A stretch of DNA of 64,000 nucleotides. Source: Escherichia coli. GTDB taxonomy: Bacteria; Pseudomonadota; Gammaproteobacteria; Enterobacterales; Enterobacteriaceae. The translations under genes were made by a program, and so were the position numbers. Below the pieces are notes generated by a model. That model was not told where the DNA came from. It did not search any database and worked only from the letters and a program-made list of their open reading frames with translations. Positions within the stretch are counted from its first letter, which is position 1. Each line of letters opens with the position of its first letter. The stretch is from NCBI RefSeq assembly GCF_003018255.1, contig NZ_CP027440.1; one strand, given 5' to 3'. Positions 35,247 to 43,334 of the stretch are shown piece by piece.

Positions 35247-36983
35247 TTAGTTTATCGCCGCGTTAGTCAGTGCGTCTGCAAGGTGCAGTTGGGTTTGTTG
35301 GGCGGTTTTTATACGAGTTTTAAGCTTATCGCATAGTTCATGAAGTAAACCTACTTGTGAAAATATTCTATATTGTTCAGTTAATGGTGGGCATGGGAAT
35401 GAATACAACATTACACTATTTGCTGATAGGTTGGGTTGTGCTGAGCCATTATCAAAGCGGTAAATCTGTGAGCGCCCAAATGGACTGGTTAAATAATTAT
35501 AAATATACCCTCCCATTTCTGTGATAAATGGTCTAATGATCATTAGTGATGAGGCAATAGCTCCTGTTTCATAGGGGGTTACAAAGGCAGTTTTACCAAA
35601 AGTTGCTCCTCGTAGGCAATAAACCAAATCACCTTTTTGAATTTTCCCACTTCTTAATTCATTAAATTTTCCTTCGGTTATAAAATTCATTTCTGTAACC
35701 GTAAGTGTACCATTTTTTTCTATATGTCCAGTATTGATCCAAGGAATACCTTGAGAAACATACTCATTTTTATTGGGATAATTACTTCCACGATCGCCAT
35801 TTATAAACTCTGATGTTAAACCAAATTTACACCACTCCCACCCTTCCGGCAGTTCAAACGGTTTTTCCTCATTGCTAATTGGCGGTAGTGGTTTTTGTTT
35901 TTTTATTTTCCCTTCTTTCACCAGTTGAGCTTTTTCCTGCGCAATTCGTTTGAGCAGTTCAGAGGCGGGTTCGTCATTCGGATCCTGCGGCACAAGTTTA
36001 CCCATTACGGCCAGTTGAAGAATGGTCTGTTTTAACGCATCCACGCTGGCTTCGGTGGTAAATAGGGTGTCGAAATGCTCGCTAATACGCGCCCAGTTTT
36101 CAGCCAGTTCCTCGGCGTTTTGGCTGTCTGTAAGCGTTCCCAACAGGGTTTCAACCAGTTGCTGATGTGCGTCCAGACTGGTCAGGGATTGCTGTTCCAG
36201 TTGGTCGCAGAGAACTGTAAGTTCTCTGATTTTTCTGACAATTTGTTGTTGTTCATTTATAGGCGGTAAAGCGATTATCTGTTGTTCCATTTTTTCTTTA
36301 GTCATATGGAGCATTGCAATACCGTTACCTTGCGATTTTATTTTATCTGTAATGGATAAAAGAAAATCATGTATAAAATATTTGTTTGAGTACTCTTCTG
36401 CAAATAAATTTAATTTCCATATATGGTAGTGATAAATTACTTTTTCTCCTGTCCAAATGAATGGCCCAAAAGATGCGGACCAAGCGTATATTAAATCACC
36501 ATTATTTATATATTTGTTTTCGTCTAATTGGAGGTCAGAGTAATACCACTCATTTGATGTGAATAGATTACCAACACGCAGCAAAGGAGTGCCTGTTTGA
36601 AGCATTTCATGTTTTTTATATGCTCGACCGTTAATAACCTCCATGAGATCTGCAACCCGCACCCACTCCCATCCCTCCGGCAATTCAAACGGCTTCTCTT
36701 CCTCGCTAATTCCTGGCAGTGGTTTTTGCTTTTTAATTTTACCTTGCTTCACCAGCTCTGCTTTTTCCGCAGCAATACGCTTCAGCAGCTCCGACGCCGG
36801 TTCATCATTCGGATCCTGCGGCACCAGTTTACCGCGCACCGCCAGTTCCAGAATCAGCTCACGCAATTTCTTAATGCCATACAAATCAATTTTACCGGAA
36901 CTGCCGCGCCCGGCGGTGGAACGGGTTTGCAACGCCGAGGTCCAGGTTTCCATATGATCAACGATCAGCTTTTCCACACTCAT
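35247..36983 (-). CDS. hsdS: Type I restriction-modification specificity subunit HsdS (non-EcoKI allele; family-IB-like domain order)
   Basis: 578-aa ORF with two variable target-recognition regions. A conserved segment occurs twice, at the N-terminus and in the centre (GKLVPQDPNDEPASELLKRIA.EKA.LVK.GKIKKQKPLP.IS.EEKPFELPEGWEW). Its ATG overlaps the hsdM stop (ATGA). Confidence 0.88.
   Translation of the reverse strand: MSVEKLIVDHMETWTSALQTRSTAGRGSSGKIDLYGIKKLRELILELAVRGKLVPQDPNDEPASELLKRIAAEKAELVKQGKIKKQKPLPGISEEEKPFELPEGWEWVRVADLMEVINGRAYKKHEMLQTGTPLLRVGNLFTSNEWYYSDLQLDENKYINNGDLIYAWSASFGPFIWTGEKVIYHYHIWKLNLFAEEYSNKYFIHDFLLSITDKIKSQGNGIAMLHMTKEKMEQQIIALPPINEQQQIVRKIRELTVLCDQLEQQSLTSLDAHQQLVETLLGTLTDSQNAEELAENWARISEHFDTLFTTEASVDALKQTILQLAVMGKLVPQDPNDEPASELLKRIAQEKAQLVKEGKIKKQKPLPPISNEEKPFELPEGWEWCKFGLTSEFINGDRGSNYPNKNEYVSQGIPWINTGHIEKNGTLTVTEMNFITEGKFNELRSGKIQKGDLVYCLRGATFGKTAFVTPYETGAIASSLMIIRPFITEMGGYIYNYLTSPFGRSQIYRFDNGSAQPNLSANSVMLYSFPCPPLTEQYRIFSQVGLLHELCDKLKTRIKTAQQTQLHLADALTNAAIN
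35832..36020. repeat. Internal direct repeat of hsdS, copy 2 (central conserved region)
   Basis: About 190 bp of high DNA identity to 36663-36852, including the shared core TCATTCGGATCCTGCGGCAC. Confidence 0.8.
36663..36852. repeat. Internal direct repeat of hsdS, copy 1 (N-terminal conserved region)
   Basis: Direct repeat partner of 35832-36020. Confidence 0.8.
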
Positions 36984-38452
36984 CAGTTAACCTCCTTGCC
37001 AGACAGCGCAGCGCCAAGAATATCGCGCAGTTGATTACGCAGCGTCTGGATCTCCGCCTGCTGTTTTGCATACTGCGCTAACAGTTCGTCCGGGTCATGG
37101 CTGACGGTTTCCGCCTGATGTGGGTTTTTAATATCCAGATTGAAGTTACGCGCAATCACGTCATCAATGCTGACTTTCCACGCTTGCTCATTCTCGATGC
37201 GGCTGGCAAAACCATCGGCCTCGTTACCCCACCAGTCAATCTCCGCCTGAAACTCTTCGAACTTCATCGGCTTGGTTTTACTGTAATTTTTCACGCCCGC
37301 CGGATACGGATGCTCATAGAACCAAATCTCTTTGGTTGGCTGACCTTTGGTAAAAAACAACAGGTTGGTTTTAATGCCGGTATAGGGGTTAAACACACCA
37401 TTCGGTAAACGCACGATGGTATGCAGATTGCACTCTTCGGTAAGCAGCTTTTTGATTTTGGTTTTAACGCCTTCGCCAAATAGCGTGCCATCCGGCAATA
37501 CCACCGCCGCGCGACCGTTTTTCGCCAGTACTTCCACAATCAGTTGCAGAAACAGATCCGCTGTTTCGCGGGTTTGCATCTCTGCCGGAAAGTTCTTCTC
37601 AATACCGTCTTCTTCCGTGCCACCAAACGGCGGGTTGGTAACAATGACATCCAGTTGCTCATCCCAGGAGGAAAGCGGTTTGTTCAGGGTGTTGTCGTGA
37701 CGAATTTGTACAGGCACTTCAATGCCGTGCAGCAGCATATTGGTGGTCGCCAGCAGGTGCGGAAGCTGTTTTTTCTCGACACCGTGGATCTGTTGTTGCA
37801 GCGTCTGATGATCGGCGACGCTCTTCACGTATTTGTTCTTTACATGATCGAACGCGCAGGCAAGAAAACCGCCCGTACCGCAGGCCGGGTCCATAATGGA
37901 TTCGCCGAGTTTCGGATCAACGCGATCCACCATAAAGCGAGTGACGGCGCGTGGCGTATAGAATTCGCCAGCATTGCCCGCAGATTGCAGATCTTTAAGG
38001 ATCTGTTCGTAAATATCACCAAACAGATGGCGTTCGCTGGCGCTGGTAAAGTCAATTTCGTTCAGCTTGTTGATCACCTGGCGCAGTAGCGTACCGTTTT
38101 TCATATAGTTATAGGCATCGCTGAACGCCTGCTTCACCACGTAGCCGCGTGGGTTTTTATCGATAGGCGCAGTGAGGTTTTTCAACGCCGGGAACAGATC
38201 ATCATTAACGAATTCCAGCAGGGAATCACCGGTAATGCCCTGAGCGTTTGCGGCCCAACTGCGCCATAAATAACGCTGTGGGATCGGATATTGATAGTTA
38301 TCCTGCTCCAGTTCCAGCGCCTCTTCCTGGGCATCGAAGATTTTCAAAAACAGCAGCCAGGAGAGCTGACCGAGACGCTGCGCATCGCCATCCACACCGG
38401 CATCTTTGCGCATAATATCTTGTAATGATTTGATTACTGAACTGATAGACAT
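36983..38452 (-). CDS. hsdM: Type I restriction-modification N6-adenine DNA methyltransferase HsdM (non-EcoKI allele)
   Basis: SAM-binding motif I (DPACGTGGFL) and catalytic motif IV (VVTNPPFGG). Start trimmed to MSISSVIKSL (489 aa). Confidence 0.88.
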   Translation of the reverse strand: MSISSVIKSLQDIMRKDAGVDGDAQRLGQLSWLLFLKIFDAQEEALELEQDNYQYPIPQRYLWRSWAANAQGITGDSLLEFVNDDLFPALKNLTAPIDKNPRGYVVKQAFSDAYNYMKNGTLLRQVINKLNEIDFTSASERHLFGDIYEQILKDLQSAGNAGEFYTPRAVTRFMVDRVDPKLGESIMDPACGTGGFLACAFDHVKNKYVKSVADHQTLQQQIHGVEKKQLPHLLATTNMLLHGIEVPVQIRHDNTLNKPLSSWDEQLDVIVTNPPFGGTEEDGIEKNFPAEMQTRETADLFLQLIVEVLAKNGRAAVVLPDGTLFGEGVKTKIKKLLTEECNLHTIVRLPNGVFNPYTGIKTNLLFFTKGQPTKEIWFYEHPYPAGVKNYSKTKPMKFEEFQAEIDWWGNEADGFASRIENEQAWKVSIDDVIARNFNLDIKNPHQAETVSHDPDELLAQYAKQQAEIQTLRNQLRDILGAALSGKEVN

Positions 38453-38518
38453 GTTGTATTCCATGAAAAACAAGGCCTTCTGCAACATGATGGTTGCAGA
38501 AGGCGCAAAAGAGAGTTG

Positions 38519-40951
38519 TTAAGCAGAGCGGGGCGGTAATTGGTAGATTTCGTTTTCCAGCTCGCTGAGCGCCTGATTATACCCGTTACGGTCGCCAAAT
38601 CCGGTTTTAATAATCTCCGGTAAGGTGCCCATGCTGTCGAATGGTTTAAGTTTCAGCACCTGAATACTTTCGATCTCCTGTACGCCCGCATCGGCGTATT
38701 TATCCAGCAGATTATCGAGCACGGCTTGCGCTGCTTCAGAGTATTTTGTGAAGTAGTTCCGCTTGCGCACGTTCTCGGCGCGCTCTTTGCGGGTTAACGG
38801 CGGCTGACCATACACTACGTGGCAAAGCATGTCGAACGGGTCGAGATCTTTACCGACTTCTTCTGCCAGTACTTCCCAGATGATCCCCTGTTGTTCCAGC
38901 TCGTGAATGATCGCTTCTTTGCGATCGGCGTCCTGCCACTTGCGGGTAAAGTCATCCAGCGAGGCATATTCTTTGAGCAGTGTTTTGCGGGTGTAATCTT
39001 TAAAAGATTCGGTAACCAGTTTACCGTCGGCATCGTAATACTGAACACGCTGCGCAATAACGCCCACCGCTACACCGTTGACGTGAAACTTGCGGATTTT
39101 CTTCTCGTCTTCTTCCGGAAGTGGGCCGACATCATCGGTATCGGTAACCTGGTATGGTGGCGCAGGCGGTTCATCAACGCCTGTTACCTGTTCGTCGTCA
39201 TGTTCGCTGATTTCTTCGAGTTTCTCTTCAAAATCAGATTCTGGATCGGCGATATCCTCTGATGTGGTATCCATGACTTTTTCGGGAATGCCATCGAAAC
39301 GCTCATCGGCAAACAGTTCGGTGGCTTTTTTAAAGTCGAGGATGGTAAACCAGAGTTTGCCGTAACGTTCGTCGATGCGTGTACCACGACCGATAATTTG
39401 CTTGAATTTGGTCATCGACTGGATGTTCTGGTCCAGTACTACCAGTTTGCAGGTTTTAGCATCCACACCAGTGGTCATCAGCTCTGAAGTGGTCGCGATA
39501 ACCGGGTACGCTTTTTTCGGGTTGATGAAGTTATCCAACTGAGCTTTGCCAATTTCATCATCGCCGGTGATTTTCATGACGTATTTGTCGTTCTTTTTCA
39601 CCTGCTCCGGGTTGAGATTCACCAGGGCGCGGCGCATACGTTCTGCATGATCGATGTCGTTACAGAAGACGATGGTTTTATCCATCGGGTTGGTGCGCTT
39701 GAGGTAGTCGGTAATGGTTCTGGCAACCAGTTCTGTCCGTTCGTCGATTACCATCGTGCGATCGAAATCTTTCTGGTTATAGATACGATCGTCGATCACT
39801 TCGCCGTTTAAGTCAGTTTGCCCTTTGGTTGGGCGCCAGCCTTGCAGATCAACATCAATATCAACACGGACAACTTTATAAGGGGCGAGGAAGCCGTCTT
39901 CGATCCCTTCTTTTAGCGAGTAGACGTAAACCGGATCGCCGAAGTAATCCGTGCTGGAGACTTCATGCGTCTCTTTTGGCGTGGCGGTTAAGCCAATTTG
40001 GGTGGCGGAACTGAAATAATCAAGGATCTCTCGCCAGGCGCTGTCTTCGGATGCGCTGCCGCGATGGCATTCGTCGATCACGATCAGATCGAAGAAATCT
40101 GGTGCGACTTGTTTAAACGCTTTTTGGTCTTCCTCCGGGCCAGTTATAGCCTGATAGAGCGCGAGGTGAATTTCATAAGCGGGATCAATGGTGCGTCCGC
40201 TGACTTTGGTCATTGCCGTACCAAATGGCTGGAAATCATTATTTTTGGTTTGGTCGACCAGAATGTTGCGATCGGCAAGGAACAAAATGCGTTTTTTATT
40301 TTTTGATTTCCACAGGCGCCAGATGATCTGGAATGCGGTATAGGTTTTCCCTGTTCCGGTCGCCATGACCAGCAGAACGCGGTTTTGCCCGTTGGAGACG
40401 GCTTCAATGGTTTTGTTGATTGCCTGAAGCTGGTAATAACGAGGCGATTTGCCGCTGCCATCGTCGTAATAGTCCTGAGTAATCACCGGAAGCTGAGCTT
40501 GTGTGTATCCTTTCCAGAGGCAGAATTTTTGCCAGAGTTCAGCGGGGGAGGGGAAGTCATCCAGCGTTATTTGCTTTTCAAGGCATTCACCTTCAGCTGC
40601 GGTGGCATCGCGGAAGATAAAGCCATCACCGTTGGTGGCAAAAACAAAAGGAACGTCCAGCAGGCGCGCATATTCAATGCCCTGTTGCATCCCTTTGCCA
40701 ATTTCATGTTTGTTGGCTTTTGCTTCAATCACGGCTAAGGGAATGCCTGGTTTGTGATACAGCACGATGTCAGCAGATTTTACCGTTCTGCGTGCCGCAA
40801 CTTTACCACGTACGATGACTTTACCGTTCCGGAGTTTGACCTCCTGTCTGATTTGCGTTGTGTTGTCCCAGCCTGCATTGAGAATGGCTGGCATAACGCA
40901 TTTGGTAATGATGTCTGCTTCCGTCAGGTTACTTAGGTTCAGTTCCGCCAT
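38519..40951 (-). CDS. hsdR: Type I restriction-modification endonuclease/translocase HsdR (810 aa, non-EcoKI; family-IB-like)
   Basis: N-terminal PD-(D/E)XK nuclease region ([19 protein letters not shown]), SF2 helicase Walker A (MATGTGKT) and motif II (DECHR). Much shorter than the roughly 1170-aa EcoKI HsdR. Confidence 0.88.
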
Positions 40952-41091
40952 GGGGTGTTCTCATCTAAATGCGATGCGTAAATTCTACACAGAAAAATAG
41001 ATGAATTCATCTGTTCAAAGAGTATTATCAGCGTTAAGTCACTGTTTTAAAGGTATTCTTGAGTTTCATCAATAGCTGGATAAGGATTCAT

Positions 41092-42060
41092 ATGGAGAAT
41101 GTTCGGTTCTTGCAAGGAGTGAAACAATATTTTTGTACTAAGGCATTAGATGTCATTCTGCTAATTTATCTACTCCTTGGTTTTATACTTCTCCCTTATA
41201 AATATCTGTGGAAAGATATTATTTTATCTCTGTACTTTGTTGGTATTCTTCTTTATGCATTAGTGGAAGAAAATCGCATTGCAGAATATATGGGGTATTT
41301 TGTTAAGTTCAGTAATAAAAACAGGTTGAATAGTTGTGCTGCCTGGTGTTCACTTATTGCATGGTTTATATTTTTGTTTTTTGTGCTTTCAATTAATATT
41401 TTTCCAGTCAGTGCCTCTGTATATATTTTTAGTGCTTTTTCATTATTTGTTTTTCTGGGGGGTATTTTTATTATATTAGAGTTAGAGTTTAAAGAAAATA
41501 AAAAATTAATGATTATTAGGTCTGTGACTATAGCAGTCATGCCAATTATATATTTATTCACAAGTAGTTATGCTTCCAGTTTATTTTTAAGTTTGAGTAA
41601 TCTAAACATTACGCTAACTCCATGGGTTGAGTATTTCTGGAAAGGGATGGTTTTTATGTTGCTTTTCTTCATGTTAATGCAACTTATTATCTATTTTGCT
41701 TTTTTAACTCTGGGGACTAAATTAAGTGTGTATAGGTTGTTTATACTTGCCGGAGCATTTGTAGTATCTACTTTTTTAGTGGCTTTTGCTTTAAAAAATG
41801 TAGAAGGTATTTCGTACTACGTTTTAAAAAGCACCATAGATTTTGAATGGCGTAATCAGATTAAATGTGGCCAGTTGAATATTTCACGTTCGAATGAAAA
41901 GTATTTTGGGTTTAATACTGATAAATATACTGTATTTTATTCCGGCAGAGATGGTAAATGGGGCTTTGATGAGTTGAAATGTAAGAAAGGTTCTGACAGG
42001 AGAGATGCATATTCTATTGAGAATGTCTCAGAATATAACGTGCCTGGATGGCTGAAATAA
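41092..42060 (+). CDS. Hypothetical multi-pass membrane protein with C-terminal soluble domain, strongly AT-rich (foreign composition); occupies the position of mrr in K-12
   Basis: ORF-track frame 41059-42060 (TTG start); trimmed to ATG at 41092, preceded by AAGGA. At least six hydrophobic helices (e.g. ILLIYLLLGFILLP, IAWFIFLFFVLSINIF, MVFMLLFFMLMQLIIYFAFLTL), then a charged C-terminal tail of about 80 aa. I recognise no catalytic motif. Confidence 0.6.
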   Translation: MENVRFLQGVKQYFCTKALDVILLIYLLLGFILLPYKYLWKDIILSLYFVGILLYALVEENRIAEYMGYFVKFSNKNRLNSCAAWCSLIAWFIFLFFVLSINIFPVSASVYIFSAFSLFVFLGGIFIILELEFKENKKLMIIRSVTIAVMPIIYLFTSSYASSLFLSLSNLNITLTPWVEYFWKGMVFMLLFFMLMQLIIYFAFLTLGTKLSVYRLFILAGAFVVSTFLVAFALKNVEGISYYVLKSTIDFEWRNQIKCGQLNISRSNEKYFGFNTDKYTVFYSGRDGKWGFDELKCKKGSDRRDAYSIENVSEYNVPGWLK

Positions 42061-42377
42061 GTCATCTTTATAAATTATATAGTAAAGGTTCTGGTCATAA
42101 ACGAGCATAGTTAAACATAAACGGGGCATACTCCACACACTTGATGTGCAGCAAGAAGTTGAACTCATGGCTTTGGTTAATAAATCTGACGAAGATATTG
42201 ATTACAGCGACATTCCTGCGTCTGGTAGCGAAGCATGGGCTGACGCCACACGCGGCAATTTTTTGCCAGATCCAGGTATTCACGCGCAATAAAACTTAGC
42301 GGAGGGGAGCACGTCGTTCTGTTTCCCCCTCACTGCTAAGTGGGGCATTGGGTTGCTTTACACTCAACCTTTTACGA

Positions 42378-43334
42378 TTATTTCCTCAACCCCGCAAACG
42401 CCGCCCGAATCTTATCCTCCGGCAGCTGAATCCCGATAAACACCATTGTGCTATGCGGTGTTTCATCGCCCCACGGGCGGTCCCAGTCGGCGCTGTAGAG
42501 GCGTTGGACGCCCTGGAACAGCAGGCGGCTAGGTTCGCCGTCAATCCACAGCATCCCTTTGTAACGCAGTAGTTTATCCGCCGATTCCAGCAGCAGGTTT
42601 TCCATCACGCGGGAAACTTCGCTGATATCTACCGGGTAATCCAGTTCCACCACAATCGACGAAATATCGTTTTGTTTATCCGCGATAAAGTGGAAACGCG
42701 GTTTGGTGCTGACGACGTTTTCTTCCAGCATAAAACCGTTGGTGTTGAACAACAGGCCCAGGTCGATGTCACCGTGGGTGACGGTGTAGACCGGTGCGCG
42801 GGCGTTGATGCGCGCCAGGCGTTCACGCAGTTTCTCTACTTCGCCTGCGACGTCGGTTTTAGTCAGCAGAATACGGTCAGCGTAGCCCACCTGGGACTGG
42901 GCGATGGTGAACTGGTTCATCTGCTCATCGGCATGTACCGCATCCACCAGCGCAATCACGCCATCCAGCAGGTAACGCTGGCATAAAATCTCATGGGAGA
43001 AAAAGGTCTGAATAATCGGGCCGGGATCGGCCATGCCGGTGCATTCAATGACCAGACGGTCGAACTGAATATTGCCCTTGTCGAGATTGTCCAGCAGGTC
43101 GAGTAGCGCGTCCTCCAGCTCGTTGGAGCGCGAACAGCAGATGCAGCCGTTGGTCAGCGTTTTGATCTGCGTGGCGCGGTCGCCAATCAGTTGATCATCA
43201 ACGGAGACTTCGCCGAATTCGTTTTCAATCACGGCAATTTTGTAGCCGTGCTGTTCATTAAGAATATGGCGCAGCAGGGTGGTTTTGCCCGCGCCTAAAA
43301 AACCGGTGAGTAGGGTAACTGCAATCGGGTTCAT
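42378..43334 (-). CDS. yjiA: CobW/HypB-family (COG0523) metal-binding GTPase YjiA
   Basis: Start trimmed to MNPIAVTLLTGFLGAGKTTLL (P-loop) with the CxCC motif (GCICCS); 318 aa. Confidence 0.92.
   Translation of the reverse strand: MNPIAVTLLTGFLGAGKTTLLRHILNEQHGYKIAVIENEFGEVSVDDQLIGDRATQIKTLTNGCICCSRSNELEDALLDLLDNLDKGNIQFDRLVIECTGMADPGPIIQTFFSHEILCQRYLLDGVIALVDAVHADEQMNQFTIAQSQVGYADRILLTKTDVAGEVEKLRERLARINARAPVYTVTHGDIDLGLLFNTNGFMLEENVVSTKPRFHFIADKQNDISSIVVELDYPVDISEVSRVMENLLLESADKLLRYKGMLWIDGEPSRLLFQGVQRLYSADWDRPWGDETPHSTMVFIGIQLPEDKIRAAFAGLRK

Follow-up and report, generated by a model that had tools for sequence, protein, structure and literature searches.

We have analyzed a small open reading frame that lies beside yjiA in a 64,000-nucleotide stretch of Escherichia coli DNA, to which we refer as the window. 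We conclude that this frame of 41 codons very probably survives from a brnA antitoxin gene that is decaying as a pseudogene at the yjiA edge of the immigration control region of E. coli. The evidence comprises homology to BrnA, synteny, the loss of the domain, the Shine-Dalgarno sequence and the start codon, the spectrum of disrupted alleles in related strains, and a relaxed dN/dS ratio.

The reading frame and its relation to brnA

The frame runs from ATG to TAA at 42167-42292 on the plus strand and translates into MALVNKSDEDIDYSDIPASGSEAWADATRGNFLPDPGIHAQ, exactly as given in a preliminary description of this DNA. The peptide is acidic (eight D/E against two K/R) and not hydrophobic, also in agreement with that description. 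An AT-rich membrane gene lies upstream on the same strand, with its stop codon (42058-42060) at a distance of 107 bp, and the stop codon of the convergent yjiA gene (42378) is 85 bp away. The features of the locus are as follows.

36983-38488, minus strand: hsdM
38519-40951, minus strand: hsdR, of the EcoAI family
41092-42060, plus strand: AT-rich membrane gene with several hydrophobic stretches (GC content 31%)
42079-42100, plus strand: junction zone, possibly the last ~20 nt of the deleted brnT, i.e., the former brnA leader (alignments A1 and A2)
42101-42109, plus strand: former brnA start (MSM), now ACG AGC ATA, with both ATG codons lost (alignment)
42101-42262, plus strand: 5′ remnant of brnA, antitoxin codons 1-54 (tblastn; phmmer match to 7VD7_B)
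42167-42292, plus strand: small frame of 41 codons, starting at the internal Met23 of the old BrnA frame and ending at a new stop
42259-42264, plus strand: T6 run where brnA homology ends, a frameshift hot spot in related alleles (alignment A1; variants)
42263-42292, plus strand: non-brnA tail LPDPGIHAQ and stop, from the replacement sequence (alignments A1 and A2 diverge after codon ~54)
42288-42340, minus strand: probable intrinsic terminator of yjiA, a hairpin at 42295-42340 followed by UUUUAUU at 42288-42294 (RNA fold)
42378-43334, minus strand: yjiA, convergent with the small frame; then yjiX and btsT

The preliminary description had treated the 41 codons as a unit, but they are the inner part of a longer homologous frame, which is open from 42101 to 42292 (63 codons). 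The earliest start codons within it here are GTG at 42146, which would open a frame of 48 codons, and the ATG at 42167. Size alone is uninformative, since an 8-kb stretch around the locus holds 75 open frames of at least 30 aa. What raises this one above chance is homology, with tblastn and phmmer giving E = 1.7e-21 and E = 1.3e-10 respectively.

Nor is the frame unannotated, as had been supposed. The exact 41-aa peptide (P0220) is a 'hypothetical protein' on 68 contigs at NCBI, and more than 1000 contigs carry the 63-aa form under the name 'antitoxin'. Three assemblies (L031-L033, positions 1435-1626) retain the ATG of the 63-codon frame, and yet their deposited annotation calls the internal 41-aa frame, showing that gene calling at this locus is inconsistent.

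Residues 2-54 of E. coli BrnA match 42104-42262 with 69.8% identity (tblastn against the window, E = 1.7e-21). On alignment, homology joins the first ~54 residues of the 63-aa frame with the N-terminal half of BrnA (100 aa in full), and the remainder is unrelated. The family motif E-L..L..K.D..IDYSDIP...W..A.RG.F is retained, and its portion from IDYSDIP onward is nearly invariant across the BrnA family; K53 of the RGKF element is replaced by N. The GC content of the remnant is 45.7% (46-47% for the open frame), compared with 47.5% for intact brnA and 31% for the membrane gene. Scans of the 41-aa and 63-aa peptides against Pfam, NCBIfam and PADLOC gave no match, and the identification was made from the annotation of homologous loci together with tblastn. 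BrnT/BrnA is a type II toxin-antitoxin system with its prototype in Brucella abortus (Heaton et al., 2012, as cited in PMC11980606). The Pfam family of the antitoxin is PF14384 (BrnA_antitoxin, formerly DUF4415).

The suggestion that the frame is a remnant of a replaced gene was therefore sound in part. It is indeed a remnant, but the source is brnA rather than mrr, and the surviving portion is from the 5′ side of the gene rather than a 3′ tail. An origin from the mrr tail was considered and rejected, as BLASTP of the 63-aa frame against K-12 Mrr aligned just four residues (E = 3.0).

Loss of the toxin gene, the translation signals and the C-terminal half

The window contains no significant match to BrnT along its 64 kb (tblastn; the best has E = 0.062 over 16 aa, and is located elsewhere). 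The position of brnT is taken by the AT-rich membrane gene. Homology with intact loci begins within about 20 nt of the brnA start. In the junction zone nine nucleotides match the 3′ end of brnT (ATCGTAAAG in the O26 allele, ATAGTAAAG here), beyond which the sequences diverge up to the start of brnA; the breakpoint is placed only approximately.

The same zone has lost the signals for translation. The strong Shine-Dalgarno sequence GAGGAG of brnA is replaced by GTTCTGG. The energy of the anti-Shine-Dalgarno duplex, -8.6 kcal/mol for intact brnA, is here just -4.0 kcal/mol at the former start and -1.1 kcal/mol upstream of the ATG at 42167, bearing out the earlier remark that no convincing Shine-Dalgarno sequence is visible. 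A consensus promoter scan found no promoter-like site near the frame on the plus strand.

The start region exists in several allelic forms. It reads ATG AGC ATG in two relatives (L001 and L002) and ATG AGC ATA in four others (L008 and L031-L033), while ACG in place of the first ATG is common to the window and L030. The responsible T to C change at 42102 is among only 4-6 differences that separate the window from L031-L033 over 3.1 kb. Because these near-identical assemblies keep the ATG and L030 shares the ACG, the loss of the start in the window is real and very recent.

The preliminary description had also proposed that the frame might share a transcript with the membrane gene and encode a small accessory protein. 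The membrane gene encodes a protein of 322 aa, in which about 6-7 hydrophobic stretches fall within residues 13-237 and the C-terminal ~85 aa are soluble; Pfam, NCBIfam and PADLOC gave no match for it. In Salmonella and Klebsiella, homologs with 30-45% identity adjoin EcoAI-family hsdR in divergent orientation, and in islands of Pectobacterium and Kosakonia such homologs immediately follow a phage-type integrase. The dN/dS ratio of 0.31-0.45 indicates that the membrane gene is maintained, and travels with defence cassettes.

A functionally coupled accessory product, such as an immunity or regulatory peptide, would fit the common strand of the two frames, the absence of a detected terminator between them, and their close spacing: the 63-codon frame begins 40 bp past the membrane-gene stop, a distance fixed in all full E. 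coli copies examined. However, no small frame of this kind lies downstream of the homologs in Salmonella (where yjiA comes directly after the gene), Klebsiella, Pectobacterium or Kosakonia. Moreover, the composition of the frame fits brnA and not the membrane gene, it lacks a ribosome-binding site, and its sequence is demonstrably derived from brnA. We therefore regard a role as accessory gene as extremely improbable. Since no terminator was found between the two, passive co-transcription by read-through from the membrane gene is possible. We infer that no functional product is made, and that a transcript would arise only by such read-through.

Only one contig seemed to combine the membrane gene with full-length brnA (L011, with protein P0016, an 856-bp metagenome scaffold from ENA), and it was rejected as an intermediate because it is a hybrid. 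By segment-wise identity, its brnA agrees with the E. coli remnant over nucleotides 1-120 (at least 98%) and with brnA of the Citrobacter type over nucleotides 121-303 (about 99-100%). The halves join at an exact shared run of 23-24 nt, and the downstream sequence fits neither context. The scaffold is probably an assembly chimera, to judge from this mosaic, and as a hybrid it was dropped as evidence for the order of events.

At the other end of the remnant, the C-terminal half of BrnA has been removed. PF14384 matches intact BrnA over residues 37-93 (E = 1.9e-17; 63.8 bits against a cut-off of 26.1), whereas neither the 63-aa remnant nor the window frame is matched even at E ≤ 10. A block nearly invariant across enterobacterial genera, LKTQASVRIDADVMEWLKRPGKGYQTRLNAILREAML, is absent from the remnant. 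The lost block corresponds to the C-terminal RHH domain, a DNA-binding domain that is said to control brnTA transcription (PMC11980606). With full BrnA as query, tblastn finds nothing at this locus beyond 42262. All full-length matches to the frame in a search of 1.84 billion representatives end their alignment at query position ~55, and no full-length progenitor of the tail LPDPGIHAQ was found among those representatives.

The tail is read from DNA unrelated to brnA. On the yjiA strand this DNA folds into a hairpin of -27.8 kcal/mol (z = -2.5), and the TAA stop of the small frame (42290-42292) is the complement of the U-tract that follows the hairpin. A consensus terminator scan did not report the hairpin, presumably owing to its restriction to loops of 3-8. 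From its predicted fold, the element at 42288-42340 is a probable yjiA terminator specific to the remnant haplotype. In strains with brnTA, the corresponding position is taken by another inverted repeat, GGCCGCCACATGGCGGCC.

A 133-bp segment (42258-42390) is always linked to the remnant, in 511 genomes. Within E. coli the replacement segment of ~120 bp occurs only with the remnant, and the junctions of K-12, Salmonella and Klebsiella do not contain it. A scan of representative genomes found it in just one cryptic Escherichia genome and in one contig from a metagenome-assembled genome labeled as Bacillota (L029, JAEWTL010000091.1), which is really E. coli. The last 840 bp of that contig (9700-10539) contain the membrane gene, the brnA remnant and yjiA as ordinary E. 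coli sequence, and so the assembly includes a mis-binned E. coli contig.

Might this DNA persist for reasons other than coding, serving yjiA as 3′ end and terminator and a swappable hsd cassette as right-hand recombination anchor, with the open frame being incidental? The stable hairpin and U-tract overlap the stop of the frame, and the 133-bp segment always accompanies the remnant and remains beside yjiA even where IS elements or other DNA have replaced everything to its left. Yet this would account only for 42288-42340, and not for the persistence of 160 bp of brnA-derived sequence. Rfam provided no family match (none at E ≤ 1 in the region 40900-42500 of the window). As the explanation of the frame we consider it very improbable, and it is compatible with a pseudogene rather than opposed to one.

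Decay in relatives and the putative toxin-binding segment

The remnant is broken in several ways in other strains. At the T6 run (42259-42264) the reading frame shifts in four variant proteins (P0008, P0011, P0012 and P0013), leading to four different tails. Other alleles are fused to the ends of IS elements, have a premature stop or have lost the start, and insertions of IS1 and ISKpn26 cut the remnant in relatives.

Selection was assessed by the Nei-Gojobori method on six full alleles, giving pairwise dN/dS values of 0.25-1.6 for the remnant. At least 19 nonsynonymous and nine synonymous changes among these alleles correspond to an omega of about 0.57. An omega of 0.1 is rejected (p = 8e-6); with six alleles neither neutrality (p = 0.12) nor an omega of 0.35, as in the adjacent membrane gene (p = 0.16), is rejected. 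The values of omega for comparison were obtained with genes from the same or comparable genomes.

Membrane gene: 0.31-0.45
yjiA: 0.01-0.07 in nine of ten pairs, and 0.21 in the closest pair, which has five differences
Intact brnA: 0.04-0.11

The N-terminal 53 codons of intact brnA give 0.08-0.18. The omega of the remnant is 5-10 times that of intact brnA. Purifying selection comparable to that on functional BrnA is not observed, and the data are compatible with weak constraint. The preliminary description had held that lack of conservation of the frame in related genomes would count against a gene, and here the outcome is mixed. Frameshifts, IS cuts, a premature stop, start losses and relaxed dN/dS are all found, but the 63-codon frame is open in most of the ~450 carriers despite nucleotide divergence of up to ~9%. 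The chance of meeting no stop through the observed 10-28 substitutions is 0.38-0.71, and the open frame is therefore not evidence of function.

A crystal structure bears upon what has survived. PDB entry 7VD7 is a toxin-antitoxin complex, comprising chain A of 94 aa ('toxin') and chain B of 44 aa ('antitoxin'). Chain A aligns to residues 2-95 of E. coli BrnT (E = 1.5e-52), and the counterpart of chain B is BrnA 14-57. By phmmer, chain B is matched by residues 15-55 of the window frame (E = 1.3e-10). The complex is closely related to E. coli BrnT/BrnA and is labeled with just these general names; a literature search found no paper that describes it. From these alignments the remnant appears to be almost exactly the toxin-binding segment of BrnA, and a peptide made from it could in principle still bind BrnT.

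Such a peptide might act as an orphan mini-antitoxin. Weak translation of read-through transcripts from the membrane gene would yield a truncated BrnA, of 63 aa in most strains and 41-48 aa in the window, that neutralizes BrnT entering on plasmids or by recombination, in the manner of an anti-addiction function, without a DNA-binding domain. The alignment of the retained segment with the crystallized antitoxin fragment is in keeping with this, as are the intact conserved motif, the frame that is open in most carriers, an omega below 1 (about 0.57), the lack of a detected terminator after the membrane gene, and the fact that BrnT homologs do occur on enterobacterial plasmids. Against this, the frame has neither a Shine-Dalgarno sequence nor a promoter-like site nearby on the plus strand. 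The start codon is lost in the window, where the 41-aa product begins nine residues into the chain B segment and lacks residues 14-22. Relatives have acquired independent frameshifts, IS cuts and a premature stop, omega is several-fold that of intact brnA and statistically compatible with neutrality, and K53 of RGKF has become N. In addition, E. coli carries this brnT as one chromosomal copy, and Escherichia contributes just 11 of the 762 plasmids on which a BrnT homolog was found. We judge this explanation to be improbable, and a residual toxin-binding role of the remnant, as it may be assessed from these comparisons, unlikely.

It is more improbable still that a fragment of BrnA capable only of toxin binding, lacking both DNA-binding domain and cognate toxin, is maintained in roughly 9% of E. 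coli genomes to serve, at a low level, as a 'solo' anti-toxin. If that were true, the fragment at the edge of the defence island would weaken BrnT-based addiction or abortive-infection modules on their entry, and the start-less allele of the window would be a recent loss of this function. Since what survives happens to coincide with the toxin-binding segment, one may nevertheless ask whether such remnants keep neutralizing activity.

Probable cassette replacement at yjiA and comparison with known systems

By megablast, the segment 42061-42400 is present in 513 of 5,426 complete E. coli genomes, with full length in 449, so that roughly 9% of E. coli genomes carry the remnant. In the carriers PGAP places a 63-aa 'antitoxin' or a 'hypothetical protein' between the same membrane gene and yjiA. 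One weaker match is an intact brnT-brnA pair beside yjiA, in strain TUM10008. Intact brnTA is present as a single copy in 1,781-2,112 of the 5,426 genomes. The order brnT (95 aa), brnA (100 aa), yjiA is found in E. coli TUM10008, ST131 and Sanji, and intact brnTA adjoins yjiA in Citrobacter also. Every intact pair inspected sits at this same site. In K-12 the locus is occupied by mrr, which ends only 45 bp before yjiA.

In Escherichia sp. MOD1-EC7003, a member of a cryptic clade (L028, 6340-6480), only the last ~18 codons of the remnant and the hairpin lie beside yjiA, with other DNA to the left. The 3′ truncation is thus not confined to E. coli, and is either old or has been transferred between Escherichia species.

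PMC12707154 places the variable immigration control region between yjiN and yjiA, with yjiA as its conserved anchor on the right. Given that intact brnTA adjoins yjiA elsewhere, we take the remnant to be a scar left by a brnTA module that resided at the border of an exchangeable defence island. Among remnant-bearing strains (the window against L001, L002 and L021), yjiA has a synonymous divergence of 0.12-0.18 with dN/dS of 0.01-0.07. In our judgement this divergence looks high for one species, and it would fit the 'bastion of polymorphism' that PMC12707154 attributes to the surroundings of the region.

The arrangement in the window most likely arose as follows, although the order of the events is deduced. 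The ancestral state would have been a brnT-brnA type II toxin-antitoxin operon directly beside yjiA. In this haplotype brnT, the promoter of the operon and the brnA ribosome-binding site have given way to a block consisting of EcoAI-family hsdSMR and the AT-rich membrane gene. In a second rearrangement the conserved C-terminal half of brnA (the RHH/PF14384 core) would have been swapped for about 120 bp of unrelated DNA with the yjiA terminator, leaving the 63-codon frame. The T to C change in the sub-lineage of the window would then have destroyed the start codon, with only the 41-codon ATG frame or the 48-codon GTG frame left visible.

The remnant marks the right-hand scar of a cassette replacement in the immigration control region. 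Our data suggest that the EcoAI-type hsd and membrane-gene block overwrote a resident brnTA, and not mrr. There is also a practical consequence, in that the entries labeled 'antitoxin' or 'hypothetical protein' are a truncated, partnerless brnA fragment and should carry a pseudogene flag.

With the BrnA antitoxin of E. coli (PF14384) the remnant shares the N-terminal 54 residues at 70% identity, including the IDYSDIP...W..A.RG.F motif. It differs from it in lacking the C-terminal half, the brnT partner, the Shine-Dalgarno sequence and, in this window, the start codon, as well as in the absence of a Pfam match and in its relaxed constraint. Its chromosomal position beside yjiA is the same as that of the intact brnTA of E. 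coli and Citrobacter. The remnant covers the toxin-bound segment of chain B in 7VD7, but that fragment is an experimental construct from a functional pair, while the window has no toxin gene.

Close counterparts are the 63-aa 'antitoxin' of RefSeq/PGAP, WP_000063145.1, and its relatives in E. coli, E. fergusonii and the cryptic Escherichia clades. These share the locus, the truncation and the tail GNFLPDPGIHAQ, and are 89-98% identical to the window frame; alleles of the WP_000063145.1 type keep the ATG start, whereas the window and L030 have ACG. In the wider setting, the review of the immigration control region (PMC12707154) discusses its restriction genes, and its excerpts do not mention brnTA or a boundary remnant. 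The remnant sits exactly at the yjiA anchor of that variable defence island, the edge of which is occupied by mrr in K-12, by brnTA in other strains, and in this haplotype by EcoAI-type hsd, the membrane gene and the remnant of brnA.
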